Origin: Thermoflexales bacterium
GTDB taxonomy: Bacteria; Chloroflexota; Anaerolineae; J036; Brachytrichaceae
Reading direction: 5' to 3'
Length of the DNA stretch: 40,427 nt
Assembly (NCBI GenBank): GCA_044235195.1
Contig: JBIIIA010000001.1
Location: forward strand, 1-40,427
The notes beneath the pieces were generated by a model that did not search any database, had not been told where the DNA came from, and saw nothing but the letters and a program-made list of their open reading frames with translations. This document shows positions 8,157 to 35,410 of this stretch, in pieces (within the stretch, counting starts at the first letter, position 1; each line of letters starts with the position of its first letter). A program made the position numbers and the translations under genes.

Positions 8157-9089
8157 CTACTGCTTCGCTTCCTCGCCCACCTGCGGCGCGGGTGAGGTGG
8201 CGATGCCATCGAGCTTGCGCTTGCGCGCTGCGCGCGAGACGGCGCGGATGATCAGCACGATCGGGGCGATGATCAGCACGAGCACCGGCAGGATGCCGAT
8301 GACGAAATAGATCAGGAAGTCGGCCAGCCCGCGCAGCAGCGTGACGAGCGTGTCGAGCGCGGTCTTGGCGGTGCCGAGCGGACGCCATGCCGGCGCTTCG
8401 ACGGGCTGCGAGGCTGCGTCGGACAACATCTCGACCGAGATGCGCGACAGCGCGGCCGATTCCGAGAGGAACTTCATGCGTCCCTTGATTTGTTCGATCT
8501 GTCCGCGGATCTGGGTGAGCTGATTGAACACGTTGAGCACGTCCTCGGTGCTCTTCGCCTCGTCCATGATCTTCTGCAGGCGCGCCTCGGCGGATTCGAG
8601 GTTCTTGAGCTGCGCGCCGAGGTCGACGAATTCACCGGTGACGTCTTCGCCGCTGCTGGATTCGGCGCGCACCTCGACGGCGAGCTGGCGCAGATCGGTG
8701 AGTGCGGCGTCGAGTTTTTCACTCTTGACGCGCAGCGTGACGTTGCCGCGGATTTCGCCGTCGTAGCGGCTGACGGCCGAAGAGACGACGAAGCCGTCGT
8801 GCTTGGCGGCGACGGCGGCGGCGGCCTCCATTCGGGCGGGCACGTCGTCGACGACCAGCGTCATGTCGGCGTTGCGTACGATGAGGCGTTCGGTGACGGC
8901 GGCGGAATCGGACGCGGCGACGTTGCCGGCCGGCGCGGAGCGCTCCATCATCGGGGCTTCGGCTGCGGGTGCGAAGTCTGGCGACGCCGCCGGCTGCGGC
9001 GCGGCAGCGCCGCAAGCGGTAAGGGAGCCGCACACGATCAGCGTGGCCAGCAGGCCACTCCAGGCGGATTTGCGCGCATCGGTTGTCAT
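8157..9089 (-). CDS. DUF4349-like lipoprotein
   Basis: Start moved from the GTG at 9095 to ATG 9089, which has GGAGG 5 nt upstream. Lipobox LTAC. Then the DUF4349-type pattern (RNADMTLVVDDV..., coiled-coil LKNLESAEARLQKIM, C-terminal TM helices). Confidence 0.7.
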   Translation of the reverse strand: MTTDARKSAWSGLLATLIVCGSLTACGAAAPQPAASPDFAPAAEAPMMERSAPAGNVAASDSAAVTERLIVRNADMTLVVDDVPARMEAAAAVAAKHDGFVVSSAVSRYDGEIRGNVTLRVKSEKLDAALTDLRQLAVEVRAESSSGEDVTGEFVDLGAQLKNLESAEARLQKIMDEAKSTEDVLNVFNQLTQIRGQIEQIKGRMKFLSESAALSRISVEMLSDAASQPVEAPAWRPLGTAKTALDTLVTLLRGLADFLIYFVIGILPVLVLIIAPIVLIIRAVSRAARKRKLDGIATSPAPQVGEEAKQ

Positions 9090-9233
9090 GTTCACCTCCG
9101 GAGCTTCAGATGATTTCGGATCGTTTCGCGGCTGCGTGAACCTTCGTGAGCGATGCAGCCGACGCAGAAGATTGTAGGACGCCTTGGCCTGTGCGTCACG
9201 ACGAGCAGCGGACGAGATGCTGACGTCACGAGG

Positions 9234-10223
9234 CTATTGCAGCGTGACGAGCAGGCCGGCGAGCAGGGCGACGAGGGAGGCGGCGAGCCAGGGCGCGTTG
9301 TCGCGCAGGATGTGCGGACGTGAATCGCCTGCAGCGGCCCGCGCTGCTTCGGCGCTGCGCGCGATCGCGAGGTCGGGAGTGCCGGTGAAGAGCTGCGCCC
9401 GGAACTCGGCGACGTTGACCGGTCGATCGTCGGGGTGCATGGCCATGGCGTCGAGGATGGCCTGTTCGACGGTCGGCGTGAGCGTCGGGTTGATGGCGGT
9501 CGGACGTTTCAGCGCGTCTGGGCGCAGAAACCGCTGCTTGGCTTCCGGCGGCGTGGTGTTCGTGAGCAGGTGGTACAGCGTGGCGCCGAGCGCGTAGAGA
9601 TCGGAACGGCCATCGGTGTGTGCATCGTCCTCACCGTACTGCTCCAGCGGCGTGTAGGCGGCGGTGCCGCGGCCCTGCAGAATCGTCACCGTCTGCGATC
9701 CATCGTCGGAGAGGAGTTTGACGAGGCCGAAGTCGACGAGTTTGATCAGCCCGCTGGGAGCGAGCTTGATGTTGCTGGGCTTGATGTCGCGATGCAGCAC
9801 CGGGTGTTGCTGCGAGTGCATGTATTCGAGCGCGTCGCACAGCTGGCGCGCCCAGCCGAGCACTTCGAACTCCGAGAGAAAGCGGCCGGTGCGGCGCGCC
9901 TCGTCCATGATCTCCTTCAGGTTTTGGCCGGAGACGTAATCCATGACGAGGAAGTCCCAGCCGTCCTCGGAAAAGTAGTCGGAGACCTTGGGCAGGTTCG
10001 GATGATCGAGGCGGGCGAGGATGGCTGCTTCGCGACTGAACTGACGCTGCAGCTCGGCGATGACGTCGGCCTGCATGGCGGCGTCGAAGCGCACGGCTTT
10101 GATCGCGCATTTGCGTCCTTCGAGGCGCATGTCTTCGGCGAGGTAGACCGACCCCATCCCGCCGTGGCCGATCGGCGCCTCGACGCGATAGCGACTGCGC
10201 AATACTGCGCCCTTCGAAAACAT
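9234..10223 (-). CDS. Hanks-type Ser/Thr protein kinase, C-terminal tail anchor, no extracellular domain
   Basis: GHGGMGSVY glycine loop, AIK lysine, HRDIKPSNI catalytic loop, DFG. C-terminal TM WLAASLVALLAGLLVTL. Start set to ATG 10223 (MFSKGAV...) because TACAAT lies exactly 7 nt upstream. ATG 10247 is the alternative. Confidence 0.88.
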   Translation of the reverse strand: MFSKGAVLRSRYRVEAPIGHGGMGSVYLAEDMRLEGRKCAIKAVRFDAAMQADVIAELQRQFSREAAILARLDHPNLPKVSDYFSEDGWDFLVMDYVSGQNLKEIMDEARRTGRFLSEFEVLGWARQLCDALEYMHSQQHPVLHRDIKPSNIKLAPSGLIKLVDFGLVKLLSDDGSQTVTILQGRGTAAYTPLEQYGEDDAHTDGRSDLYALGATLYHLLTNTTPPEAKQRFLRPDALKRPTAINPTLTPTVEQAILDAMAMHPDDRPVNVAEFRAQLFTGTPDLAIARSAEAARAAAGDSRPHILRDNAPWLAASLVALLAGLLVTLQ

Positions 10224-10230
10224 GCAGGAA

Positions 10231-10236
10231 ATTGTA
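10231..10236 (-). promoter_or_regulatory. -10-like hexamer TACAAT, 7 nt upstream of kinase ATG 10223
   Basis: Reverse strand reads TACAAT-ttcctgc-ATG. Confidence 0.45.
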
Positions 10237-10258
10237 GCGGTGCGCATACCCCTCTAGT

Positions 10259-10264
10259 TACAAT
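10259..10264 (+). promoter_or_regulatory. -10-like hexamer TACAAT, 7 nt upstream of FHA-regulator ATG 10272
   Basis: Forward strand reads TACAAT-gcagctg-ATG. It is a mirror arrangement to the kinase promoter 23 nt away. Confidence 0.45.
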
Positions 10265-10271
10265 GCAGCTG

Positions 10272-10937
10272 ATGCAGGACTCTCCGATGCTCATCATCGA
10301 AAACGGCCAACTGGCGGGACAGCGTTGGCTGATGGACTCCGACGTCGTCGTCATCGGGCGTGAGGTCGGGCTGGCCGATCTCTTGCTGCCGGAGCGGCAG
10401 GTGAGCCGGCGCCATGCGAAGATCGAGCGCACGCCCGAAGGATTTATTTTGTCGGATCTGGACAGCAAGAACGGCACGTTTCTAAATGGGCGTGAGGTGA
10501 AGGAGCCGCAGCGGCTGCAGGACGGCGATGAAATTCAGATCGCATTGTGCGTGAAAATTGCGTTCGTCGGCAGCGATGCTACTGCTCCGCTGAGCGCCCG
10601 CCCGATCAGCCGGGCGATGCGGCCGGTGGTGCGCGGTGTGCGCATCGACAAAGAGGGTCGGCGGGTGTATTTGGCGGAGCAGGAGCTGGATCCGCCGTTG
10701 AGCCTGCAGCAGTATCGCCTGCTCGAGCTGTTGATCGAAGCGAAGAACGCGCTGGTATCGCGCCACGACATCGTCGAGAAGGTGTGGGAAGGTGAAAATT
10801 CCTTCGGCGTGAGTGAACAGGCGATCGATGCGCTGGTGCGTCGCCTGCGCGATCGCCTGGCGGAGCGCGACCCCGATCACGAGTACATCGTGACGGTGCG
10901 CGGCCACGGTTTGCGTTTCAACAATCGGTTCAATTAA
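10272..10937 (+). CDS. FHA domain fused to OmpR/PhoB-type winged-helix DNA-binding domain (no receiver domain)
   Basis: ORF 9435..10937 trimmed; the upstream part is antisense to the kinase. FHA signature VVIGRE...RQVSRRHAKIE...LSDLDSKNGTFLNGREV. C-terminal Trans_reg_C-like LSLQQYRLLELLIEAKNALVSRHDIVEKVW...IDALVRRLRDRL...IVTVRGHGLRF. Alternative ATGs at 10263 and 10287. Confidence 0.85.
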   Translation: MQDSPMLIIENGQLAGQRWLMDSDVVVIGREVGLADLLLPERQVSRRHAKIERTPEGFILSDLDSKNGTFLNGREVKEPQRLQDGDEIQIALCVKIAFVGSDATAPLSARPISRAMRPVVRGVRIDKEGRRVYLAEQELDPPLSLQQYRLLELLIEAKNALVSRHDIVEKVWEGENSFGVSEQAIDALVRRLRDRLAERDPDHEYIVTVRGHGLRFNNRFN

Positions 10938-10939
10938 TT

Positions 10940-11866
10940 GTGTGGCGTCGACTGGCTGCGGCGATTCCGGCGCTCGCGCTGATTCATCTGCTCGGCTTCG
11001 CGTACGCTCTGTCGGCGATGCGAGTGCACGAGCAGCGCAGTCCGTTCGGGTCCCCGGGTGAAGGATCACTTATTGCCGAAGTGCGCGCGCACATCGACGA
11101 CGTGCTGCGCGGCGATTTCGGGGATCTTCCGCGCAGCCAGGGCGCGGTGTCGGACGTCACTGTTGCGGCGCTCGGTCGCAGCATGCTGGTGCTCGGCCCG
11201 GCGTTCGCGGTGAGTGCTTTCGTCGGACTTTATCTGGGTGCTGCGGCTGCTCGGCAGAATCCGACGCGCCTCGCCGGATGGCTTTTTCCCGTGGCCGTGC
11301 TGCTGCAGTCGCTGCCTTCTTTTTACATCGGCGCGTTGCTGACGGCTGGGCTGCTTGCGCTGGAATGGGCTGATGTTTCCGTGCAAGGGAACTGGATCTG
11401 GCCGGTGCTGGTGCTGGCGGCGCGGCCGACGGTGCAGGTGGCCCAGTTCGTCGCCAGCCTGATCATGGCGGAATCCGACAAGCAATACGTCGTCACCGCG
11501 CGGGGCGTCGGTCATTCCTTCGGCAGTGCGCGACGGGTGCACGTATTTCCGAATATTGCCGCGTCGGTCGTCGGCTGCCTGGCTGCGGCGTTTCGGCTGT
11601 CGGTCGCAGAACTCGTCGTGGTCGAATGGCTTTTCGACTGGCCCGGCATCGGACGACTGATGGGGATGGCGCTGATCGTGCCGCGCCGCACCGATGCTCT
11701 GGCGCCTTTCTTTTTACATCCTGAACTGACCGCGCTCGTGTTCACCGCGCTGGCTTTTCTTTTCATCGTCGCCGACGTCGTCGCGCGTGCGTCGACGAAG
11801 GTCGTCGATCCGCGGCTGCGCACGCCGCTCGAATCGGCTGCGAAGAACGGGAGGCTCTCGACGTGA
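10940..11866 (+). CDS. ABC transporter permease, DppB/OppB-like
   Basis: 308-aa ORF with a GTG start 2 nt after the regulator stop. Multi-TM. GDFGDLPRS segment and the EAA-like loop ESDKQYVVTARGVGHSFGSARRVHVFPN. Confidence 0.8.
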   Translation: MWRRLAAAIPALALIHLLGFAYALSAMRVHEQRSPFGSPGEGSLIAEVRAHIDDVLRGDFGDLPRSQGAVSDVTVAALGRSMLVLGPAFAVSAFVGLYLGAAAARQNPTRLAGWLFPVAVLLQSLPSFYIGALLTAGLLALEWADVSVQGNWIWPVLVLAARPTVQVAQFVASLIMAESDKQYVVTARGVGHSFGSARRVHVFPNIAASVVGCLAAAFRLSVAELVVVEWLFDWPGIGRLMGMALIVPRRTDALAPFFLHPELTALVFTALAFLFIVADVVARASTKVVDPRLRTPLESAAKNGRLST

Positions 11867-14055
11867 AGATGCGCAATGCTGCGCTGGTGAGCGGCGCTAT
11901 TCTGACGTCGGTGTGGTGTGCGGTAGCGTTGTTCGGTGCAGACCTCGCGCCGCGCAGCCCGACCGATTTCAACTACATCGCGGTCGTCGGCGATCGGTTC
12001 ATCGCACCGCCGTTTCCTGCCTTCGTCACGGCGGAATTCCCGCTCGGCTCGGATTCATTCGGGCGCGACACGCTGAGCCGCTTGCTGTGGGCGGTGCGGC
12101 CGACGCTGCTGCTGGCGTTCAGCATCGGCGCACTGCGCGTCGTCATCGGCGCGCTGCTCGGAGTGGCGGCGGGCTGGTTCGACGGCCGCATCGGGCGCGC
12201 GCTCGATGCGGCGGCGAGTGGCGCAGTGTCGCTGCCGGTGCTGCTCGTTGCACTGCTGGTCATCGCCGGCCTGCCAGTGCAGCTCGGCGCCGCAGCATTC
12301 TTCCTCGGCCTGACGATCACGGGCTGGGCGGAAACGGCGCAGTTCAGCGCCGACCAGACGCGCATCGTCCGGCGTGAAAAATTCATCGAGGCGGCGCGCG
12401 CGCTCGGGGCATCCGAGATGCGGATCGCACGGCGGCATGTGTGGCGGCAGCTGGCTCCGATGCTGCGGCTGATCTTCATCGTGGAAACGAGCGGCGTGCT
12501 CATGGCGATTGCAGCGCTGGGCTTTCTCGGCTATTTCGTCGGCGGGGCGAACTGGATCATGATCACCGATTTCGAAGCCCAGCGCATGGCCGGTGCGCCG
12601 GAGCTGGCGGAGATGTTGTCCAGCGCTGTGCGGTCGCGCGACGCTGCGCAGATCGGCATCGTCGGGGGGACGACGGGGCTGATCGTGCTCGGGCTGCGGC
12701 TGTTGGGAGAAGGGCTGCAGCAGCGGCTGACATCGGAGAAAAGCCGGCGCAGCGCAGTGGCGCGCACGGTGACCGATTTCGTGCAGTCCCAGCAGGATCG
12801 CCTGTCGGAGTCACTGTCACAGCGACGCATTCGCATACGTGTGGCCATCGGAATCGGTGTGACGTCGATCGCGCTGGCGATTGGGCTGGCGGCGCGAACG
12901 ATGCTGGATGAGCCCGTGCCGCCGCCGCTGGCGGTGACAGGGGGGCATGTCTGGGCCAGCGCGCGTCGTGATGCGGCGGGCAGCCGACGCGCGGCCGGGG
13001 ATCTGGCGGCGGGAGAGATGCGCATCGCGTGGGAGCGCACGCCGGGCGGCCGGCTGGGAGGCGTGGCCGTGGGACGGGACGGAACGATGTACGTGACCGA
13101 CCTCGATGGAAAGCTGCATGCACTCGATGCCGAGGGCCGCCTGCGATGGAGCGCGGCGCTGGACGAGTCGCCGGTCGGTGCGCCGGGATTGAACGCTCGT
13201 GGGGAGATTGCGGTGGCCGACGTCGCCGGCGCAGTGACGGTGTTCGACGGATCGGGCGTGCAGCTGCGGCGCACGACGATCGACGCCGGCCGGCGTGCCA
13301 TTTCCGGACCGGTGTACGACGATGACGGCAACAGCTATGCGGCGTTGGAGGGCATGCTCGGCTCGATCGATGCGCAGGGTGGTGTGCGCTGGCGTGCACA
13401 GTTGCCGTACGCGTATTTTCAGCCTGCGCTGCGCGTCAGCGACGGATTCATCTTTTTCAAGGACATGGCGTTTTCTGCGCGCAGCGGTGCGGTGTTGCTG
13501 AAGGAGTCGCGCGACGACCTCGATCAATTCGTCACGGGTGTGGACGGCGGCGTGTATTTGCTGTCGCAGTCGGCGCTGCTGGCGTGGCGGCGTGACGGTG
13601 AAAATGTGTCGCTTGCGCGCGTGGCGCAGCTGGATTGGGCGAAGGAATTTCCGGGTCGGATCGCCATGGATGCCGTGGTGTGGTTCGACGGCGGTATTTG
13701 GCTGCAAGTCCCCGGAGGCATGAACAGCACGCGCATCATCTGGCTCGATGGCGCTGGAGGGCTGTCGGGCGACGTCGCGCTGCCGTATGCGAACGCGAGC
13801 GTGATTGCCGTCGACGAACGTGGTGTGCAGGCGATCTGCGGTGAAGTCGATCGCGTGCGCGTGCGCTGCGACGGTCTGCCCCCGCGTGCCACTGCGCCGA
13901 TGTGGTCGGTGGAATTCGCAGTCGAACCGATTGCCGGCGATCGATATGGCGATGCGATGGTGGCCGGCGGCGCGCTCGTCGGCGATCGGCTGATCGTCGC
14001 CACGCGCACGGGGAAGATCGTGGCGATCGAACGTGAGCGGCGCGGGGAGCCGTGA
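11863..14055 (+). CDS. ABC transporter permease (DppC/OppC-like) fused to an extracytoplasmic PQQ-like beta-propeller domain
   Basis: 730-aa ORF with a 4-nt overlap to the upstream permease. N-terminal half has PLGSDSFGRDTLSRLLW and EKFIEAARALGASEMRIARRHVWRQL permease motifs. An extra TM (VAIGIGVTSIALAIGLAA) follows. Then about 380 aa of repeats such as GTMYVTDLDGKLHALDAEGRLRWSA, GEIAVADVAGAVTVFDGSG and DRLIVATRTGKIVAIE. Confidence 0.8.
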   Translation: MKMRNAALVSGAILTSVWCAVALFGADLAPRSPTDFNYIAVVGDRFIAPPFPAFVTAEFPLGSDSFGRDTLSRLLWAVRPTLLLAFSIGALRVVIGALLGVAAGWFDGRIGRALDAAASGAVSLPVLLVALLVIAGLPVQLGAAAFFLGLTITGWAETAQFSADQTRIVRREKFIEAARALGASEMRIARRHVWRQLAPMLRLIFIVETSGVLMAIAALGFLGYFVGGANWIMITDFEAQRMAGAPELAEMLSSAVRSRDAAQIGIVGGTTGLIVLGLRLLGEGLQQRLTSEKSRRSAVARTVTDFVQSQQDRLSESLSQRRIRIRVAIGIGVTSIALAIGLAARTMLDEPVPPPLAVTGGHVWASARRDAAGSRRAAGDLAAGEMRIAWERTPGGRLGGVAVGRDGTMYVTDLDGKLHALDAEGRLRWSAALDESPVGAPGLNARGEIAVADVAGAVTVFDGSGVQLRRTTIDAGRRAISGPVYDDDGNSYAALEGMLGSIDAQGGVRWRAQLPYAYFQPALRVSDGFIFFKDMAFSARSGAVLLKESRDDLDQFVTGVDGGVYLLSQSALLAWRRDGENVSLARVAQLDWAKEFPGRIAMDAVVWFDGGIWLQVPGGMNSTRIIWLDGAGGLSGDVALPYANASVIAVDERGVQAICGEVDRVRVRCDGLPPRATAPMWSVEFAVEPIAGDRYGDAMVAGGALVGDRLIVATRTGKIVAIERERRGEP

Positions 14056-14076
14056 TCGCAAGCGTCGGCGATCACG
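14051..14076. terminator. 9-bp perfect hairpin between convergent genes
   Basis: cgtgatcgc-aagcgtcg-gcgatcacg. It overlaps the TGA of the permease fusion. No U-tract. Confidence 0.35.
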
Positions 14077-14090
14077 GCCGATGCGTCGAA

Positions 14091-15596
14091 TTACGGCCGG
14101 CGCACGATGTACACCGGGTCGATGCCGATGTTCCAGTATGTGCTGCCACCGGCCTGATACGCGGGGGACAGTGCGTTGCCGTCGATGTCGTAGGCGGCGA
14201 TGAGCTTCGCCGTGGGGGCGTTGATCGTGTAAATATCATCCGTCCTCGCCCATACGATGTGCACCTGCTCATTACTGGAGCGGCGCAGCGCGAAAGCTTC
14301 AACTGCATCCGGATAGCCGGACGCCGTCGACAGATAAGTGGTGTTGCGGGTGAGGTTCGAGAAAGTGCGGAGCGCAGAATATGCGGGTCGCGGGTTGCCC
14401 ATCCAGTCGTACAGGCCTCCCTGACGCCAGCCGCCATTGTCGATCACGTACCATACGAAACTTTCGACATCGGCGTTCATCGCACGCAGTGGAGCCTTGA
14501 CGGCATAGTGCGCCTGTGCGATGAAGAATGCTTCCTCTGTCGGCTTGCAGTAGGGAGGCGGATTCTCCGTGTCATTCACGCACATCAGCGCCGATTCGTT
14601 GAGGTGCAGTGGTTTGGTCAGGCCGTACTCGGCGAGGATGCCACGTAGAAAATTGGCTTTGCCGACGATGCCGCCCTTATTAGGGTCAGTGTTCGCCACA
14701 GTGGCGTCGAAGCCGATCAACGAGTGGTCAATGGAAACTTTTCCTTGGTAGGGTGGGTAGAAATGGTACGGCACTGCATCGAAGTACAGACCGGCGCCGG
14801 CTTCGAGGATGCCTTTGAAAAACAGCTCCGGTCGTCCGTACCCCGGGCGGGTTTCATTTTCACGATCGAGCAGCAAGCCGCCGATCCATACTTGTGCATG
14901 CCGATCCGCAGCCCGTATACGAGGTGTGACGACTTTCAACATTTCGCCATAGTGTTCGCCACCATAGAACGGATCTGCGATGTTTCCCCAGCATCCGTAG
15001 ACCATGTCCTTCTTGTCGCCGAACCAATAAGGATCGACGTCCGGCTCATTGCCGAGCTCCCAGATCTTCACGTTGTATGGTGCGGCGCTGTATCGGTTGA
15101 CGAGCGCGACCACATACTCGGCGAATGCCTCGAATTTGTCCGCGCGGATCGCTGTGCAGCTATTCGTCGGATCGATGCTGGCCCATCTGGGATGGTCGTC
15201 GACGACCAGAATGGGGTGAATTCCGGCGGCATTCAGTGCGATCAATTCCTGCTCGAGCGTAAAGGCCGGAGTCCAGTCGATCGGATCGCCTTCCTTTGGT
15301 TGCATGGCGCGCCACGAGATGCGTCCGTTCAGACGCATGCGATCGACGCCGAGATCGAGCGTGCGGGTGAGCATTCGTGTTCCCGGTGTGATGGGGGCGT
15401 TGGCTTCGGCGCTGATGTATGGTCGCCATGGATATCCCGATGTCACGATGGGAACGTATGTGGACTGTGTTGCCTCCGTCCGTGCGGCATCCTGCGGCGC
15501 CACGCCTTGGCTGATGCTCGTGCGAGGTGCTGCGAACAGCACGAGCACGGCGACCAGCGCCGCGAACAGGGAATTCGTCCGATGGGCGTAATTCAA
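14091..15596 (-). CDS. secreted glycoside hydrolase, clan GH-A TIM-barrel (GH5/GH39-like)
   Basis: ORF 14091..15755 trimmed to TTG 15596, which has GAGGA 6 nt upstream and yields a signal peptide (NYAHRTNSLFAALVAVLVLFAAP). Catalytic-acid-type motif IWELGNEPD. Visibly lower GC than its neighbours. Confidence 0.7.
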   Translation of the reverse strand: MNYAHRTNSLFAALVAVLVLFAAPRTSISQGVAPQDAARTEATQSTYVPIVTSGYPWRPYISAEANAPITPGTRMLTRTLDLGVDRMRLNGRISWRAMQPKEGDPIDWTPAFTLEQELIALNAAGIHPILVVDDHPRWASIDPTNSCTAIRADKFEAFAEYVVALVNRYSAAPYNVKIWELGNEPDVDPYWFGDKKDMVYGCWGNIADPFYGGEHYGEMLKVVTPRIRAADRHAQVWIGGLLLDRENETRPGYGRPELFFKGILEAGAGLYFDAVPYHFYPPYQGKVSIDHSLIGFDATVANTDPNKGGIVGKANFLRGILAEYGLTKPLHLNESALMCVNDTENPPPYCKPTEEAFFIAQAHYAVKAPLRAMNADVESFVWYVIDNGGWRQGGLYDWMGNPRPAYSALRTFSNLTRNTTYLSTASGYPDAVEAFALRRSSNEQVHIVWARTDDIYTINAPTAKLIAAYDIDGNALSPAYQAGGSTYWNIGIDPVYIVRRP

Positions 15597-15631
15597 TTCG
15601 ATTCCTCGCTTCGGCGGCGTCTTGCAGCCAG

Positions 15632-18466
15632 TTATTTCGGCTCGGTGCACGGATGCGTGACGCCGAACCTTGCGGTTCCCTGCGGCAGCGTGAGCGACAT
15701 TACGTCGTCGCTGCCGCGGAGCGATTCTACGGATACGCGTCCGCGCTCCGTCCATGCCGACGCCACGTTCGCTGACCGCGGCATTCGCAGCTGTGCCGGC
15801 GCGTCGAGCCGCACGGTGAGTTCGGTGGCTTCACACGAGAGCCGCTTCCACGACACGTCGATGCTGCCGCCGTCGATCGGCACAGAACCATTAGCATAGT
15901 TCAAAACGTCCAGCGCTGGGGTGATGCTGAGATTGCCGGTTCGGTCGCGAGCGATGCCGAGCACGCGCGTGGAGAGGAACCACGTCGGCGCCGAACCCCA
16001 GCCGTGTGAGAGCGCGCTGGAGTAACGGTCGTCGGCGTCGAACGTCTCCCACCACGTGGTGGCGCCGCGGTCGAGCATGGCGCCGTACAAGCGACGGACG
16101 AGCGACAGGCCGTCGGCGGTGCGATCGGCGTTGGCCAGCCCCTCGAGGATCCAGTACGTGCCGTACGGCCCGAAGCCAGGAGCGCGCGGATCGGGGCCGA
16201 CGCGGGCGAGCAGGCAGTCGGCGACGGCGGTGCGCGATTCCGCGGGCGGCACGTCGTAGGCCAGCGCCCAGCCCTGTGCGTGCACGGTGGGGATGCCGCG
16301 GATGCCGGCGTAGATCGTCGAGGCGTAGCAGCCTGATCCGGCGTCGTAGAGCTGCGCGTGAATCGTGGTGCGCAGCTGGCTCGCTTCGAGATTCCATTGC
16401 TCGGCGTCGGCGCTTTTGCCGAGGCGCGCGGCGATGCGGGCGGCCGCGCGCAGCGTGCCGTAATACATGGCGTTGACCGGCGTGCTCAGACCGGCGGTGC
16501 CGCGGCCGCCGGTGCCGACGTCTGCGTAGAAGGCTGGGAAATCGATGAGCGCCGACTCGGACCAGTGCAGGTTGGGCACGTCGATCAATGTCGATCCGGC
16601 GGCGCGGTAGCCGGCGAGGAAGCGCAGGAAATCCTGCATCTTCGGATAGATGCGCTGCACGAATCCTTCCTCTGCGCTGCGCACAAGATACGAATCGAGG
16701 CTCTGCACCCAGAGCATGCCGTAATCGAGCAGCAGCGTGCCGTCGTTGTTCGGCGCGAACGCCGGCGGCCGGCCGTCGACGACGCCGTCGGCAAAGGCCT
16801 GCAGGCCGCGCCGCAGCAGCGCCGTGTCGGCGAAGGCGACTTCGTTGACGCGATCGACGACGAACGCATCGCCCCACCACTGCGCGCGTTCGCGCCACGG
16901 GTCGGCGTAAGCGTCGACCATGTTGATGCGCGCGGTGTTCACGCCGGTCTGCCAGATCGCGTCGAGCTGCGCATCGGCCGAGAACGAGCCGGTCTGCACA
17001 GCCGGGTAGCGTTCGTCTTCGAAGCGCACGTCGGCGAGCATGACCGGGCCGCCCCATGCGATCACCACGACGTAGCGGCCGGTGCGGGCGTCGATGGTGT
17101 GCACGGAGCGCTGCGTTCCGTCGAGCGTCCATGAATCGACCTGGCTCCATTCGCTGTGCAGCGGGCCGGGGTGCGGCAGGATCCAATCGGCGCCGGGCTG
17201 CAGTCGTTCGTCCCAGCCGACGTCGACGATCGTCCCGGACGGGCCGGAGACGTCGAAGATCAGGCGGCCGTGGCGCACCTGCCCGAGGTCGAAGAGCACA
17301 TAGGATGCGGCGCTGGGCAGGCGGTACGTATGCGGCGAGGAGGTGTCGATTTGAAAAATATCGGCGTCCGGCTGGGCGAGAGCGGCGCGGATGCCCGGGG
17401 CAGGGATGACCGATGCTGCCGGCGGAGCTACGGCAGCGTCGTCGAACGGCGCGTGCAGCAGTGCTGCGCGATCGACGAGCCCGTCGATGCGATGCTGGCC
17501 GGGGTCGACGAACGCTGTTGCAGAGTAGACGCCGGGGCGCGCGGGATCGGCGTTCCACGCGAGCGGCGCAGCATTCAGCGTCGCGGTGGGCGGCGCCGCA
17601 CCGAGGTCGCTGCCGAAGGCATCGATGACGATCGTTTGTGCGTTCGACACGGAGAAGGCGGCCGAGTCTTCCTTCGATTGCAGCAAGGTGGCGTACGGCG
17701 AAATGCGGCCGGCGTCGTGCAGGGCCGGGCGCATTTCGGAGTGATCGAGGAAGGGAATCGAGCGTGGGGCGTATGTCGGCGTTGCCTCGAGCGCGGGGAG
17801 GACGGCGGCGGCGGGCCAGGTGGAATCGTTGAAGTCCGGCGCCTGCCAGTTCGAGGGCAGGCTGCGCAGGTCGAGAATTTCGCTCGGCCCGATCAGGTCC
17901 CAGAGATGGATGCGGCGCGACGCGTACGACCATGCGTCCGGCGCGATCGCGCGCCACGATTCATTCGAGCGCGCGACGATCTGCGTGCGCCCGGCTGGAT
18001 CGCGCCCTTCGATGTGCGCGCGCAGCTCCGGCCGCAGCGATTCGGCGCGGCGTGTGTTCGGCGCCCACTGCACGAGCACGGCGATGACGTGTCGCCCGGG
18101 CGCGAGCGTGCCGAGATCGTGTCGGTCGTATTCGCGGCGCACGCGCGAAAAGCGCGCCGGGCCGCGGCCGACGAAGGCACCGTCGATCCACAGTTCGTAG
18201 CGCGTGTCGGCGAAGATGTGCAGCTGTGAAACGTCGAGCGTTTCGGTCAGGTCGAATGTCGTGCGCAGCAGGGCGATGTCGTTTCCGTCGACGGTTTCCT
18301 GGGCATGCCACACGGCGATGTCGTCCGCGATGAATTCATACGCAGCGACGAACGGGACATAGACGATCGTGCTCGACGAAGTGGCGATGTTCGGCTGCGC
18401 AGTTCTGGGTGTGAAGGATGGGAGGAGGGCAACCAGCGCAGCGAGAAAAGAAGCGAGCTTTCCCAT
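15632..18466 (-). CDS. GH78-like alpha-L-rhamnosidase family protein (six-hairpin glycosidase)
   Basis: 944-aa ORF with a signal peptide. N-terminal YELWIDGAFVGRGPARF resembles the rhamnosidase N-domain. DPWRERAQWWGD resembles the DxPxRE..W.GD motif. C-terminal GATTWWETF...SLSHGWGSAP. Confidence 0.65.
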   Translation of the reverse strand: MGKLASFLAALVALLPSFTPRTAQPNIATSSSTIVYVPFVAAYEFIADDIAVWHAQETVDGNDIALLRTTFDLTETLDVSQLHIFADTRYELWIDGAFVGRGPARFSRVRREYDRHDLGTLAPGRHVIAVLVQWAPNTRRAESLRPELRAHIEGRDPAGRTQIVARSNESWRAIAPDAWSYASRRIHLWDLIGPSEILDLRSLPSNWQAPDFNDSTWPAAAVLPALEATPTYAPRSIPFLDHSEMRPALHDAGRISPYATLLQSKEDSAAFSVSNAQTIVIDAFGSDLGAAPPTATLNAAPLAWNADPARPGVYSATAFVDPGQHRIDGLVDRAALLHAPFDDAAVAPPAASVIPAPGIRAALAQPDADIFQIDTSSPHTYRLPSAASYVLFDLGQVRHGRLIFDVSGPSGTIVDVGWDERLQPGADWILPHPGPLHSEWSQVDSWTLDGTQRSVHTIDARTGRYVVVIAWGGPVMLADVRFEDERYPAVQTGSFSADAQLDAIWQTGVNTARINMVDAYADPWRERAQWWGDAFVVDRVNEVAFADTALLRRGLQAFADGVVDGRPPAFAPNNDGTLLLDYGMLWVQSLDSYLVRSAEEGFVQRIYPKMQDFLRFLAGYRAAGSTLIDVPNLHWSESALIDFPAFYADVGTGGRGTAGLSTPVNAMYYGTLRAAARIAARLGKSADAEQWNLEASQLRTTIHAQLYDAGSGCYASTIYAGIRGIPTVHAQGWALAYDVPPAESRTAVADCLLARVGPDPRAPGFGPYGTYWILEGLANADRTADGLSLVRRLYGAMLDRGATTWWETFDADDRYSSALSHGWGSAPTWFLSTRVLGIARDRTGNLSITPALDVLNYANGSVPIDGGSIDVSWKRLSCEATELTVRLDAPAQLRMPRSANVASAWTERGRVSVESLRGSDDVMSLTLPQGTARFGVTHPCTEPK

Positions 18467-21635: not shown

Positions 21636-21701
21636 AGAAGAGAGTAAGAGTAAGAGTGAGAGTAGAGAGTAGAGAGTCATAGTCATAGTCATAGTGATGG
21701 T
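21636..21701. repeat. low-GC short-period repeat tract: six (A/G)GAGT units at 6-7 nt spacing, then CATAGT x3 and GATGGT
   Basis: GAGT cores at 21642, 21648, 21654, 21660, 21667 and 21674. Perfect CATAGT copies at 21678..21695. It starts immediately after the folD stop. Confidence 0.85.
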
Positions 21702-21720
21702 GAAGGCAGGGGGTGATGCA

Positions 21721-23859
21721 ATGAAGAAGGTGATTGCAGGAAAGGGGCTTTGCATGCTGGCGGCGCTGGCGCTGTTGAGCGGATGTGCGCGGCGCGCAGC
21801 GGCGCCGCAGCAGCTGGAACCGACGCGCACGGCGGCGCCGCGGGCGGCGGCTCCGGCACCGACGAAGACGCTGGATGCGGCGCAGGCGACCGTTGCCGCG
21901 TCGCGCGGCGGGCTGGCGCGCGAGAACGTCGACGCCTTCGCCGAGCGCTTCGTGCGCCGTGACCTGCTGCCGCGCCTGATCTACGGCGTCGCCGCCGATC
22001 GCATCTCGCTCTACAACCAGCGCGCGTTCGAGACGTACGATGCGCAGACGCTGCGTTCCCTCGTAGTGACGCCGGTGGAGATCGAGGAAAGCGTGGACCT
22101 GTACTGGTATGCGCTGTCGATCGACGGACGCCGCGGCGTGATCATGCAGAAAGACGGTGGCGTCGATGTATATGACCTCGACTCCGGTCGACGCATCGGC
22201 CGATTCGACGTCGGCCGGATCGGCGACGACGTCGCCGACATCGCGCTCGACGCGACGGGCGCGACGGCCGTCGTCGTCAACGACGGTCGGCTGCAGCGCT
22301 ACGAACTGATCACCGGCGCGGAAATCGGCGAGCCGCTCCCGTTGCCGAGCTCGATTGCGTTTCTCGTGTTCTCGCGCGACGGCGCTCGGCTGGCGCTGCA
22401 GACGATGCTGGGCGGCATCGAAGTGCACGACGCGAATACGGGCGCGGTGACGTCGCTCGCGCGCGAAGTGGACGGCGTGCAGCGCATCGCGTTCAGCCCG
22501 GACGGCCGGCGGATGGCGACGTCGAGCGCGAACGCCGTGCAGATCTGGGACACGGCCACGGGTGAAGAAATCTGGGGCATCACCGATCTCTCCGAGACGG
22601 TGTCGGTGGCATTCCCGCCGCAGGGCGACGTCGTCGCGTTGTACGGGTTGTCCGGCGGCGGCGTGTTCTACGACATCGAGAAGCGCGAGGCCGTCGATGA
22701 ATTCGCCCCGACCGGCGGTGGGCGCATCGCTTCCGCAGAATTTGCGACTGACGGCGGGTCACTTTTCATGCAGACCGGAAGCGCGCTCGAGCGGATCGAT
22801 GTGTCCACGCTGCGCGTCACGAGCTCGATGCGGCGCTTCGCGGCGACCGAGGCGGCATGGCTGCCGAGCGGCGATCTGCTGGCGTGGAGCGAGCGATTCG
22901 AAAACGGCGAGCTGCTGCTGCTCGACGGCGACGATGGCCGCACGCTGCGCGTCATGCAGCACGACGTGCCGCTGGCGCGCGTGATGCCCGGCCGCGGCGG
23001 CCGCTACGTCGCGACGTCGACGCAGGACGAATCGATCTACGTCTGGGATGCGGCGAGCGGCGACATGACGACGGCGATCGAAGACGAAGTGCAGGCGCGC
23101 ATCCTGCTGTGCATGAGCCCGGACGAGCAGTCGGTCATCTACTACGAAGACGGAGCGATCGTGTCCATGCCGCTCGATGAAGCGCAGGACGCGACCGACT
23201 TCGCTGCGCCGCTCGACGATCTCCTCGACATCTCGTACTGCGACAACGCGCGCGGCCGCCTGGCGTTCCAGAACGCGAGCAGCATCGAAGTCATGTCGCT
23301 GGACGGACGCACCGTGTCGACGATCGAACTGGGCGAGACGCTCACGCGGGCCGTCGGCCTGGCGATGAGCGCCGACGGCCGCTGGGTCGGCGGCGTGCTT
23401 GACGAATCGTTCATGGTGTGGGACGCGGAGACCGGCGAACCTGCGCTGGAGCGCGTGCTGCGCGAAGACGCCGAACGCGTGCAGTTCCTCTTCGACGCGC
23501 ATCAGCCGCGCGTGCTGCTGCGCGAAGGACAGCAGCACACGCTGATCGACGTCGTCGGCGGCGGCGAGCGTGCGATCGAAATCGCGGACGGGCGCATCTC
23601 GCGCTTCGAATTTCCCGTAAATGAACGGCTGCTGCTGGCGACTGCGCGCGTGGTCGATGAGGCGCGGCCGCTGGTGCGCGACGAATTGAATTTCACGGGC
23701 GGCGCGATCACGATCTGGGATGCCGAGAGCGGAGAAGCGCTGCGCGACATCGAATTGAAAGAGCCGGTGTATTCGTCGGCCATCAGCGCCGACGGGGCAC
23801 GGCTGGCGCTGCTCGGCTACGATGGGTCCCTGTCGGTCTGGGCGGCCGCCGGCGATTAG
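21721..23859 (+). CDS. WD40/beta-propeller repeat lipoprotein
   Basis: ORF 21694..23859 trimmed to ATG 21721 (MKKVIAGKGLCMLAALALLSGC, lipobox LSGC), with GGGGGTGA upstream. Repeats such as IAFSPDGRRMATSSANAVQIWDTATGEEIW and ISADGARLALLGYDGSLSVW. Confidence 0.75.
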   Translation: MKKVIAGKGLCMLAALALLSGCARRAAAPQQLEPTRTAAPRAAAPAPTKTLDAAQATVAASRGGLARENVDAFAERFVRRDLLPRLIYGVAADRISLYNQRAFETYDAQTLRSLVVTPVEIEESVDLYWYALSIDGRRGVIMQKDGGVDVYDLDSGRRIGRFDVGRIGDDVADIALDATGATAVVVNDGRLQRYELITGAEIGEPLPLPSSIAFLVFSRDGARLALQTMLGGIEVHDANTGAVTSLAREVDGVQRIAFSPDGRRMATSSANAVQIWDTATGEEIWGITDLSETVSVAFPPQGDVVALYGLSGGGVFYDIEKREAVDEFAPTGGGRIASAEFATDGGSLFMQTGSALERIDVSTLRVTSSMRRFAATEAAWLPSGDLLAWSERFENGELLLLDGDDGRTLRVMQHDVPLARVMPGRGGRYVATSTQDESIYVWDAASGDMTTAIEDEVQARILLCMSPDEQSVIYYEDGAIVSMPLDEAQDATDFAAPLDDLLDISYCDNARGRLAFQNASSIEVMSLDGRTVSTIELGETLTRAVGLAMSADGRWVGGVLDESFMVWDAETGEPALERVLREDAERVQFLFDAHQPRVLLREGQQHTLIDVVGGGERAIEIADGRISRFEFPVNERLLLATARVVDEARPLVRDELNFTGGAITIWDAESGEALRDIELKEPVYSSAISADGARLALLGYDGSLSVWAAAGD

Positions 23860-32097: not shown

Positions 32098-33354
32098 TCA
32101 CTGCGCGACCGTGCGCAGGCGCTGCAGGGTGCCGGAAACGTACGAGAGCATATACAGAGAGCCGTCCGGTCCCGAACGAATATTGACGATGGCACCGGCT
32201 TTCGTCGATACCGGCCGCACTCGGAACAGGCGCCCCTCGGCATCGACCGATGCGCGTTTCAGCCAGCCGCGGATGAAGTCGGCGAAGAAGAATTCACTGT
32301 AGGCGTCCTCCGGCAGCATGCGGCCGAAATTGAAATCGCCGGCGATGACGGCCGCCTCCGATCGATTGTGTTCGTACACGATGTCTCGTGCGCTGATTTC
32401 CGAAATGCGAAAACTGTCGCATCGCCGCAGAAATCGCGCGAACGGATGCGGCCTGATGCCGTCGAGACACGGCCAGCCGAAGCGTGCTCCGCGCGTGACG
32501 CGCACGATCGATTCGTAATGAAAAAGACCGACCTCGCCGACGTATGGTTCGTCCCTGAACGGATGCATCGCGAAGCGAAACGGGTAGCGCAAGCCGTATG
32601 CCCAGACGCGGGATCGCGCGCTGCGTGGATCGTTCGAATCGTAGAACGGATTGTTCGGCAGGCCGGCGCCCGTACGCGGATCGATGCGCAGGATCTTGCC
32701 GTTGACGGAATCCAGATCGTCGGCGCGGGCAGTGAGTAAATATTGATTTCTATCGGAATTCGCGCCGTCGCCGAACGAGACGAAGAGCATGCCGTCTCGT
32801 CCGAAGCGGATGTCCCCGATGGAATGGAAATTGCCGGGGATGATGAAATCGTCGACGATTACGAATGCGCTCTGTGGATCGACTCGGTCGTCGATGACCG
32901 TGTATCGGACGACCTTGCCTTTGCGTTCACGTGTTTTTTTGTCGCTGGGAAAGGATTCATTCGAGACGAATCCCAGGTAGATGAAACCGTTTTGCGAGAA
33001 GGCTGGATCGACCGCAGCGGCCAGCAGCCCGTGGAAATGGCCCGAGTAGATCTCGCTGCTCAAATCCAAAACAGGCTGCGGCTGTACTGCACCGTCGCGG
33101 GCAACACGCACCGTGCCGGACTTTTCAGCAAAAATTACGCGGCCGTCGGGCAGGAAGTCGAAGCTGGTGGGGCCGGTCAGGCCGGCGACGACGGTCTCGA
33201 GTGCGAAGCGCGGATCGTCTCCGGAGAGTGAGCGATGAATGTGCGCTGCGCTGCGCGCCGCGTCGACGACGGCGCGCCCGGCGCCCGACAACGGCTGCAG
33301 CAGCGACGCGCCGACGACGGCGGCGACAGCGACGATGAGTGTGACGGTCTTCAT
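32098..33354 (-). CDS. PQQ-dependent sugar (glucose/sorbosone) dehydrogenase-like beta-propeller, secreted
   Basis: 418-aa ORF with a signal peptide. DDPRFALETVVAGLTGPTSFDFLPDGRV, HSIGDIRFGRDG, GKILRIDP, RVWAYGLRYPFRF and FGWPC. ATGA overlap with the upstream paralog. Visibly lower GC. Confidence 0.8.
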   Translation of the reverse strand: MKTVTLIVAVAAVVGASLLQPLSGAGRAVVDAARSAAHIHRSLSGDDPRFALETVVAGLTGPTSFDFLPDGRVIFAEKSGTVRVARDGAVQPQPVLDLSSEIYSGHFHGLLAAAVDPAFSQNGFIYLGFVSNESFPSDKKTRERKGKVVRYTVIDDRVDPQSAFVIVDDFIIPGNFHSIGDIRFGRDGMLFVSFGDGANSDRNQYLLTARADDLDSVNGKILRIDPRTGAGLPNNPFYDSNDPRSARSRVWAYGLRYPFRFAMHPFRDEPYVGEVGLFHYESIVRVTRGARFGWPCLDGIRPHPFARFLRRCDSFRISEISARDIVYEHNRSEAAVIAGDFNFGRMLPEDAYSEFFFADFIRGWLKRASVDAEGRLFRVRPVSTKAGAIVNIRSGPDGSLYMLSYVSGTLQRLRTVAQ

Positions 33355-35348: not shown

Positions 35349-35355
35349 GATTGCG

Positions 35356-35361
35356 ATTATC
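35356..35361 (-). promoter_or_regulatory. -10-like hexamer GATAAT, 7 nt upstream of GTG 35348
   Basis: Reverse strand reads GATAAT-cgcaatc-GTG. Confidence 0.35.
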
Positions 35362-35410
35362 GGACACCGTTCAACCACTGACCCCTAACCTCTAATCCCT
35401 GTCCCCTTGC

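Follow-up and report, generated by a model that had tools for sequence, protein, structure and literature searches.

We describe here a two-gene cassette found in a 40,427-nt stretch of DNA from a Thermoflexales bacterium (GenBank assembly GCA_044235195.1, contig JBIIIA010000001.1, positions 1 to 40,427), referred to below as the window. The first gene encodes a DppB-like permease of the ATP-binding cassette (ABC) transporters (permease 1) and the second a 730-aa fusion of a DppC-like permease (permease 2) with a C-terminal beta-propeller. The best explanation for the cassette as a whole, to which we would give about an even chance, is that it encodes an importer driven by ATP, in which the tethered propeller either substitutes for the external receptor or docks it. 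The cassette represents a Chloroflexota-wide, uncharacterised subfamily, which appears never to have been studied.

Three forward-strand open reading frames (ORFs) abut at this locus (Table 1), encoding a regulator with FHA and Trans_reg_C domains, a BPD_transp_1 permease and the permease-propeller protein. The stop codon of the regulator gene (TAA, 10935-10937) is followed by TT and by the GTG start codon of permease 1 at 10940, and the stop codon of permease 1 (TGA, 11864-11866) overlaps the GTG start codon of permease 2 at 11863 (GTGA, 11863-11866). These junctions agree with a preliminary description of the sequence, which had reported a 2-nt gap followed by a 4-nt overlap. The public database call of permease 2 begins at an in-frame ATG at 11869, which yields a protein of 728 aa. 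No promoter-like sites were detected in a scan of positions 10100-14200, where terminator-like sites occurred at chance level. The G+C content of the window, calculated per 2-kb block, ranges from 0.61 to 0.71.

The fusion protein contains a BPD_transp_1 domain at residues 96-240 (4.9e-11; 43.1 bits against a cut-off of 26.4) and a PQQ_2 domain at residues 388-515 (8.5e-12; 45.6 bits against a cut-off of 27.6), and its sequence matches the DppC chain 8z1v_B of the PDB (6e-15). An AlphaFold2 (AF2) model, built on a 26-sequence alignment, had a mean predicted local distance difference test (pLDDT) score of 80.2, with values mostly between 80 and 95 across residues 380-730. The model comprises six DppC-type transmembrane (TM) helices, the sixth with a long cytoplasmic extension, followed by a low-confidence basic linker (residues 302-331), a seventh helix (residues 330-343), a disordered stretch, and about 30 strands within residues 386-724, which is consistent with eight blades. 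In Foldseek searches, the N-terminal half matched DppC/OppC of Escherichia coli and OppC of Mycobacterium tuberculosis (TM-scores 0.80-0.83; target-normalised values of 0.81-0.83 for 8z1w_B, 8z21_B and 8j5q_C), which places it in the DppC/OppC fold. The best matches of the C-terminal half were the eight-bladed propellers Cake8, YxaL, BamB and Rv3035 (E-values of 1e-13 to 1e-15, TM-scores 0.65-0.77). Pfam, hydropathy, AF2 and Foldseek thus all bear out what had previously been read from the letters alone, i.e. that permease 2 continues through an extra TM helix into BamB/PQQ-like repeats, and the structure prediction confirms that these repeats adopt a propeller fold.

Structural overlap with pyrroloquinoline quinone (PQQ)-dependent dehydrogenases is partial (target-normalised TM-scores 0.47-0.52). 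In these enzymes the catalytic propeller spans approximately 550-600 aa and carries PQQ- and metal-binding residues; the propeller domain analysed here has approximately 350 aa. The propeller is a BamB/YxaL-like domain with about eight blades and is probably non-enzymatic. It is not BamB itself, since its TIGR03300 score of 31 bits is far below the cut-off of 285.

The hydropathy profile has a peak at residues 325-343, and the loop before this seventh TM helix (TM7), residues 283-324, contains nine Lys/Arg residues. Both termini of DppC lie in the cytoplasm, and TM7 therefore takes the chain back outside the cell. Within the propeller, Cys669 is invariant and Cys659 is present in 96% of the family, the two residues being placed on neighbouring strands. 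Some homologues append LysM, RodZ_C or DUF11 domains, or a second propeller, after the first one. The propeller faces outward, as predicted from TM7, the basic loop that precedes it, the cysteine pair and the appended domains.

A protein search retrieved 129 homologues (31-88% identity), of which more than 115 were full length with both BPD_transp_1 and PQQ_2; the full-length proteins align end to end, linker and TM7 included. We also scanned one genome per species (185,579 species genomes) and kept the best 80 loci. Every propeller-inclusive match among them was in Chloroflexota, i.e. (i) Anaerolineae/Anaerolineales, (ii) Caldilineales, (iii) metagenome-assembled genomes (MAGs) assigned to 'Chloroflexia', and (iv) Ca. 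Brachythrix. The matches in other phyla are limited to residues 1-290 and so represent ordinary DppC. When only the propeller was searched against 1.84 billion representatives, 153 matches were obtained at E <= 1e-30. About one third of the best 150 were fusions, each a single full-length match at protein positions ~330-740, and the others included standalone 400-aa propellers and giant repeat proteins.

In each of the 48 related loci, the gene immediately upstream of the fusion gene is DppB-like, which makes permease 1 an obligate partner of the fusion protein. Three proteins (P0018, P0034 and P0092) carry permease 1, permease 2 and the propeller on a single chain, each with two BPD_transp_1 stretches. 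Tandem cassettes were also observed, three in locus L006 (4997-15727), one of which ends with RodZ_C domains, and at least two in L011 (3699-13498); these arrays suggest that the cassette has expanded into paralogues whose propellers are diverging. When 692 ORFs from 50 loci were clustered all against all, no conserved neighbours emerged beyond the permease pair, the next-best clusters being GT2 (10 loci) and amidohydrolase (9 loci).

Orphan permease pairs that lack a propeller were also found. One is located in an Ardenticatenaceae genome (L048, 8975-10852), where the second permease has only 304 aa; in the related orphan-pair proteins P0117-P0120, some members have C-terminal extensions of 100-250 aa with no Pfam match. 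Such pairs may represent either an ancestral state or a degenerate one.

The permease-propeller architecture has no Pfam or NCBIfam family of its own. The fusion protein scored far below every curated cut-off of the NCBIfam equivalogs DppC, OppC, NikC, Opp1C, CntC, SapC and GsiD. Its best partial match was Opp1C (100.7 bits against 350), with DppC at 58 bits against 483; the best partial matches thus lean towards nickel/cobalt permeases (Opp1C, NikC; ~100 bits) and those of the staphylopine type, not DppC. The database names of the homologous clusters are generic and automated ('ABC transporter permease', 'PQQ-binding-like repeat protein'), and a literature search for ABC permease-propeller fusions, or for orphan permeases or shared ATPases in Chloroflexi, found nothing relevant. 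The suggestion that this is an undescribed module therefore stands, in that neither a curated family nor a paper covering the architecture was found.

The absence of an ABC ATPase and a family-5 solute-binding protein (SBP) from the 40 kb, also noted in the preliminary description, was confirmed by three approaches: a six-frame motif scan detected neither Walker A nor LSGGQ in the window ORFs above 102 aa, tblastn queries for a Dpp-type ATPase and for a family-5 SBP gave no match in the window, and Pfam analysis of its approximately 35 genes detected neither ABC_tran nor SBP_bac_5. We extended the survey to the flanks of the 48 related loci (up to 10 kb on each side where the contig allowed), using as controls 37 loci with an ordinary DppC that came from the same genome scan. 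A Dpp-type ATPase gene was adjacent in one fusion locus versus 28 of the 37 controls. In that single case (L001), it lies on the opposite strand, in a separate convergent operon, after its own DppC fragment that is cut by a run of N. SBP_bac_5 genes occurred in the flanks of two fusion loci, both times in separate opposite-strand operons, versus 28 of the 37 controls. Fisher tests gave p values of ~1e-13 (ATPase) and ~2e-12 (SBP) for loci that are not phylogenetically independent. Two further groups of candidate ATPases were rejected as cognate: a fragment upstream of permease 1 in L041, which belongs to an exporter-type ABC ATPase, and weak matches (25-31% identity) in seven loci, which belong to other ABC classes. 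No cognate ATPase/SBP operon was thus located beside the fusions in the 48 loci. The pair is a self-contained two-gene cassette, never linked to an ATPase or binding protein of its own.

Two Chloroflexota loci contain canonical SBP_bac_5-DppB-DppC operons without ATPase genes in the locus sequence, one near a fusion cassette (L004, 605-4178, reverse strand) and one from Thermomicrobiales (L077, 1640-5000). Such genomes must therefore encode their ATPases elsewhere, which suggests that unlinked and perhaps shared Dpp/Opp ATPases are common in Chloroflexota.

The EAA coupling loop is among the best-conserved segments of permease 2: E176, A177, A180 and P199 are present in at least 90% of 26 diverse members, and G182 and H192 are invariant. 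Permease 1 scored 70.5 bits with BPD_transp_1 (2e-19; Pfam cut-off 26.4), gave partial, near-full-length NCBIfam matches to Opp2B/Opp1B/NikB, and had a weak PDB sequence match to E. coli DppB (8z1v_A). In 50 sequences of its family the coupling loop is conserved (consensus K.YV.AARS.G ... RN), and the WPGLG and C-terminal DPRLR motifs are also retained. The permeases had been called orphan, and this term holds as far as the ATPase is unlinked family-wide; it probably does not extend to independence from an ATPase, given that both EAA loops are strongly conserved.

In permease 1, the segment between TM1 and TM2 is shortened. Its median length is 40 aa (interquartile range (IQR) 38-40) in 49 family members versus 51 aa (IQR 51-51) in 31 canonical DppB proteins, a set that is mostly proteobacterial. 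The 11-residue deletion coincides with the absence from the permease 1 family of the signature GDP...LGLDxP, which is retained by the canonical DppB encoded at L004, the locus that also holds a fusion cassette. In E. coli, the corresponding 'scoop motif' of DppB (residues 32-62) enters the cleft of DppA, and DppBCDF is inactive without DppA (PMC12136057).

The two halves of the fusion protein differ in conservation, with a mean column identity of 0.50 for the membrane domain and 0.33 for the propeller. The outer loops of permease 2 (0.49) are as conserved as the TM core. A short motif just before the propeller, in which W364 and G373 are invariant, reaches 0.54, in contrast to 0.20-0.22 for the flanking linker and TM7, and blades 1, 2 and 8 are better conserved than blades 3-7. 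Since the outer loops, the pre-propeller motif and blades 8-1-2 are the conserved parts, this pattern fits docking of the propeller by one conserved side, with variability elsewhere. Receptors are known to evolve faster than the membrane domain of their transporter, as the propeller does here.

We propose that the DppB-like and DppC-like products of the two genes form a heterodimer, the membrane part of a type I ABC transporter of the peptide/nickel family (PepT). As both coupling (EAA) helices are conserved, the pair would still be driven by ATP, probably through Dpp-type ATPases encoded elsewhere. The covalently tethered propeller may serve as an external receptor or docking module in place of an operon-encoded binding protein, a role that in other single-membrane bacteria falls to the fused binding domains of OpuA and GlnPQ. 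Its conserved side (pre-propeller motif and blades 8-1-2) would rest on the conserved outer permease loops, and the variable blades 3-7 would determine specificity. The imported substrate may be a peptide-like or amide nutrient, as suggested by subclade operons with catabolic enzymes. Amidohydro_1 is encoded by the next downstream ORF in 9 of the 50 loci (a clade spanning 44-86% identity), in six of them 0-16 nt downstream on the same strand, and proline dehydrogenase follows the cassette in three loci of another clade; operons with such cytoplasmic enzymes fit nutrient import of this kind.

Replacement of the binding protein by the propeller, already raised in the preliminary description, gains indirect support from the rarity of SBP_bac_5 genes in the flanks, the scoop deletion and the faster evolution of the propeller. 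It is put forward as tentative, since the cassette may instead use an unlinked SBP or an SBP docked on the propeller. Several observations weigh against an importer with a propeller receptor. No ATPase partner of the cassette was identified in the window or the 48 related loci, the locus counts come from related genomes, and the canonical DppB set used for the scoop comparison is biased towards proteobacteria. The predicted TM-score (pTM) of the AF2 model is only 0.58, so the model does not settle where the propeller sits with respect to the membrane domain. The propeller has few conserved polar residues besides the cysteine pair, a pattern that suits a scaffold as well as a receptor. Characterised BamB-like propellers are protein-protein scaffolds, and among them Rv3035 has FecB, a protein with the SBP fold, as a binding partner and acts as a scaffold for AftB (PMC13041763); by analogy, the propeller could dock an unlinked SBP instead of replacing it. 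The specific proposal that the cassette constitutes its own, new class among the type I ABC importers, conserved across Chloroflexota, in which the tethered propeller is the substrate receptor, the SBP-engaging scoop is deleted and unlinked ATPases are shared, is consequently put forward as tentative, with clearly less than an even chance of being correct.

The strongest of the alternatives, which we consider less likely but take seriously, is an ordinary Dpp/Opp-type importer served by a conventional unlinked SBP and ATPases, with the propeller as an accessory scaffold that might tether the transporter in the cell wall or recruit partners, for instance hydrolases or an SBP. The nearest structural relatives of the propeller (BamB, YxaL, Rv3035) are non-enzymatic scaffolds of this kind, Rv3035 forming a heterodimer with FecB, and anchoring in the cell wall is suggested by the LysM and RodZ_C add-ons. 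The shortage of conserved polar residues and the existence of propeller-less pairs (L048, P0117-P0120) are in line with such a role. However, canonical operons, including those of L004 and L077, keep their SBP gene despite unlinked ATPases, and none of the 48 fusion cassettes does. The scoop that engages the SBP cleft is truncated family-wide, and tandem cassettes duplicate the propeller and never gain an SBP.

Another possibility, suggested earlier for this locus, is that the permeases were recruited as a membrane sensor or co-sensor ('trigger transporter') passing a propeller-borne signal to the adjoining kinase and FHA regulator. The regulator (Pfam FHA 4.4e-20, Trans_reg_C 2.2e-16) is coupled to the cassette by the 2-nt gap, and the translation of the kinase stops right after a single TM helix, leaving a membrane anchor with essentially no extracellular domain; its only NCBIfam match is a partial PknB-like one. 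Sensory genes also adjoin the cassette in L017 and L019, in which a HAMP histidine kinase gene lies directly upstream, preceded in L019 by a gene for an OmpR-type response regulator. The DUF4349-kinase-FHA-cassette order recurs, however, only in L087, a relative with 88% identity, whose FHA orthologue has 224 aa and the same 2-nt gap to permease 1. The link is absent from the ~45 other loci examined, and relatives with 65-66% identity (L007, L088, L091) share a non-coding leader upstream of permease 1, with no FHA gene there. The FHA regulator and kinase were thus rejected as family-level partners. Furthermore, the conserved EAA loops and the strongly conserved transmembrane domain argue for a working, ATPase-coupled translocator, and the subclade operons with catabolic enzymes fit nutrient import. 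We regard the sensor hypothesis as improbable, and the earlier suggestion of a membrane sensor under kinase/FHA control was not borne out.

Because the link is confined to the window and L087, the FHA regulator and kinase reflect local regulation and not a family trait. We read the regulator as a lineage-specific transcriptional control and do not take it as a sign that the permeases act as a sensor. With the cassette placed behind an FHA-winged-helix regulator and a sensor-less membrane Ser/Thr kinase, its expression in this lineage is probably under the control of phospho-threonine signalling.

An FtsEX-like mechanotransmission, in which ATP-driven motion of the transmembrane domain would act through the propeller on a cell-wall process without any substrate crossing the membrane, is still less probable. 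The cell-wall-binding add-ons (LysM, RodZ_C), the conserved outer loops and pre-propeller motif, and occasional neighbours such as Wzy_C, a PASTA kinase and FtsZ are compatible with it. Yet the transmembrane domain has the type I importer fold and not that of the MacB/FtsX type, to which the known cases of mechanotransmission belong, none of the neighbours conserved across the loci is a cell-wall enzyme, and the subclade operons hold cytoplasmic catabolic enzymes. Finally, an assembly or frameshift artefact joining a permease gene to a separate propeller gene, which the existence of standalone propellers of the same subtype (399-440 aa) and of split ORFs in some MAG loci (e.g. L026, L045) might suggest, can be dismissed, since the same continuous architecture is found in over 115 independent clusters, drawn from assemblies of NCBI, JGI, ENA and Logan, which can be aligned over their full length, linker and TM7 included; the fusion is genuine.

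The coordinates of the cassette, its functional segments and the adjoining regulatory genes are listed in Table 1.

Table 1. Features of the permease-propeller cassette and the adjoining regulatory genes (positions in the window)
Feature	Position (nt)	Strand	Evidence or remarks
Ser/Thr protein kinase	9234..10247	-	Pfam Pkinase 2.6e-37; C-terminal TM anchor; divergent from FHA regulator
FHA + OmpR-type winged-helix (Trans_reg_C) regulator, without receiver domain	10263..10937	+	Pfam; ATG at 10263
Permease 1, DppB-like ABC transmembrane subunit, 308 aa	10940..11866	+	BPD_transp_1 2e-19
Permease 1, shortened extracytoplasmic TM1-TM2 segment, residues 24-57	11009..11110	+	Equivalent of the canonical DppB 'scoop motif'
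Permease 1, EAA-type coupling loop (KQYVVTARGVG...HVFPN)	11480..11554	+	Family consensus, 50 sequences
Permease 2-propeller fusion, 730 aa: DppC-like transmembrane domain, cytoplasmic linker, TM7, extracytoplasmic propeller	11863..14055	+	Pfam, homologues, AF2, Foldseek
Permease 2, EAA coupling loop (FIEAARALGASEMRIARRHVWRQLAP)	12382..12459	+	Conservation in 26 diverse family members
Seventh TM helix (TM7), residues 325-343	12835..12891	+	Hydropathy 2.03; AF2 helix 330-343
Pre-propeller motif, consensus GGHLWASERRDPxGT (W364, D370, G373)	12943..12990	+	Mean column identity 0.54
BamB/YxaL-like (PQQ_2-type) beta-propeller, ~eight blades, residues 377-724	12991..14034	+	PQQ_2, AF2, Foldseek
Cys659/Cys669 pair of the propeller	13837-13839 and 13867-13869	+	Conservation

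On the regulatory side of the cassette, the kinase gene is followed on the same strand by a DUF4349 gene (together 8157-10247, reverse strand), whose product bears a lipoprotein-like signal at its N-terminus and a TM helix at its C-terminus. The kinase-DUF4349 pair is syntenic in L087, and the DUF4349 protein could be an external partner of the kinase. In three of the related loci (L007, positions 1-70; L088, 1-72; L091, 1-110), the contigs, which derive from different samples or assemblies, end within approximately 110 nt upstream of permease 1. Their shared leader reads ...GTTCCAGATATCGCATGTAAGATCGCGGCGTGA, and an inverted repeat, TTCGCC-N-TTTTGGCGAA, stands before it in L088 and L091. That the three contigs share a break point suggests repetitive or variable sequence immediately upstream of it.

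Downstream, a convergent 554-aa ORF (14091-15755, reverse strand) has no Pfam or NCBIfam match and lies in the block with the lowest G+C content (0.605). Its product carries a hydrophobic segment at the N-terminus and a 'WELGNEPD' motif that recalls glycosidases of clan GH-A. The ORF is syntenic with the GH78-like rhamnosidase gene (15632-18466) in L088, and homologous ORFs are found downstream of the cassette also in L007 and probably in L091. Its true start is probably located further downstream, because the annotated one overlaps the rhamnosidase gene by 124 nt. The window also encodes further propeller proteins, namely a 721-aa WD40-repeat protein (21694-23859) and two adjacent proteins of the GSDH type (PQQ-dependent glucose/sorbosone dehydrogenase family; 32098-35378). 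No link between the cassette and the WD40-repeat or GSDH-type genes was found within the 40 kb.

Among characterised systems, the cassette is most readily compared with DppBCDF/OppBCDF (E. coli 8z1v and 8z21; M. tuberculosis OppABCD, 8j5q), with which it shares the heterodimer of a B-type and a C-type permease, the EAA loops, and the WPGLG and C-terminal DPRLR motifs of DppB. It differs from them in that (i) the operon lacks ATPase and family-5 SBP genes in all 48 loci, (ii) the scoop is 11 residues shorter, and (iii) the C-type subunit has gained TM7 and a 370-aa propeller. PknH-EmbR of M. tuberculosis, in which the FHA-containing winged-helix regulator EmbR is controlled by the Ser/Thr kinase PknH, provides a parallel for the regulatory genes: FHA and OmpR-type DNA-binding domains are combined in one protein near a membrane Ser/Thr kinase. 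Here, by contrast, the domain order is different, there is no BTAD domain, the kinase has no sensor domain, and the link to a transporter is limited to close relatives.

BamB, YxaL and Rv3035 resemble the propeller in size and fold (Foldseek E-values of 1e-13 to 1e-14, TM-scores 0.65-0.73), and are likewise extracytoplasmic and disulfide-containing. Unlike the propeller of the cassette, they are free-standing proteins with a lipid or TM anchor, and none is fused to a transporter; BamB is an outer-membrane lipoprotein of the BAM complex, whereas the domain described here is joined to an inner-membrane permease.

Tethered receptors are typical of bacteria without an outer membrane. With an extracytoplasmic receptor covalently attached to its transmembrane domain, the cassette would be comparable to OpuA and GlnPQ of Lactococcus lactis, type I importers with binding domains fused to the permease (PMC7673798, PMC11065425, PMC8025302). 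The domains fused in OpuA and GlnPQ have the bilobed periplasmic-binding-protein (PBP) fold, in contrast to the beta-propeller of the cassette. To our knowledge, no role of a beta-propeller as the receptor of an ABC importer has been described. PBP-fold tethered receptors being already known, what is new here is that an ABC translocator of the PepT type combines a tethered propeller with a trimmed scoop and with ATPases that are unlinked.

In the current view, type I ABC importers need a bilobed PBP-fold protein, which both delivers the substrate and triggers ATP hydrolysis. In the phylum-wide subfamily described here, the linked SBP has been dropped, the SBP-engaging loop trimmed and a propeller welded to the permease; the subfamily would therefore test whether another fold can do the job of a PBP, or show in what way transport at the cell wall is organised by propeller scaffolds. 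Uncultured Anaerolineae and their relatives are abundant in sludge, sediment and groundwater, and the present analysis offers a first functional handle on a protein pair that is present in many of them.

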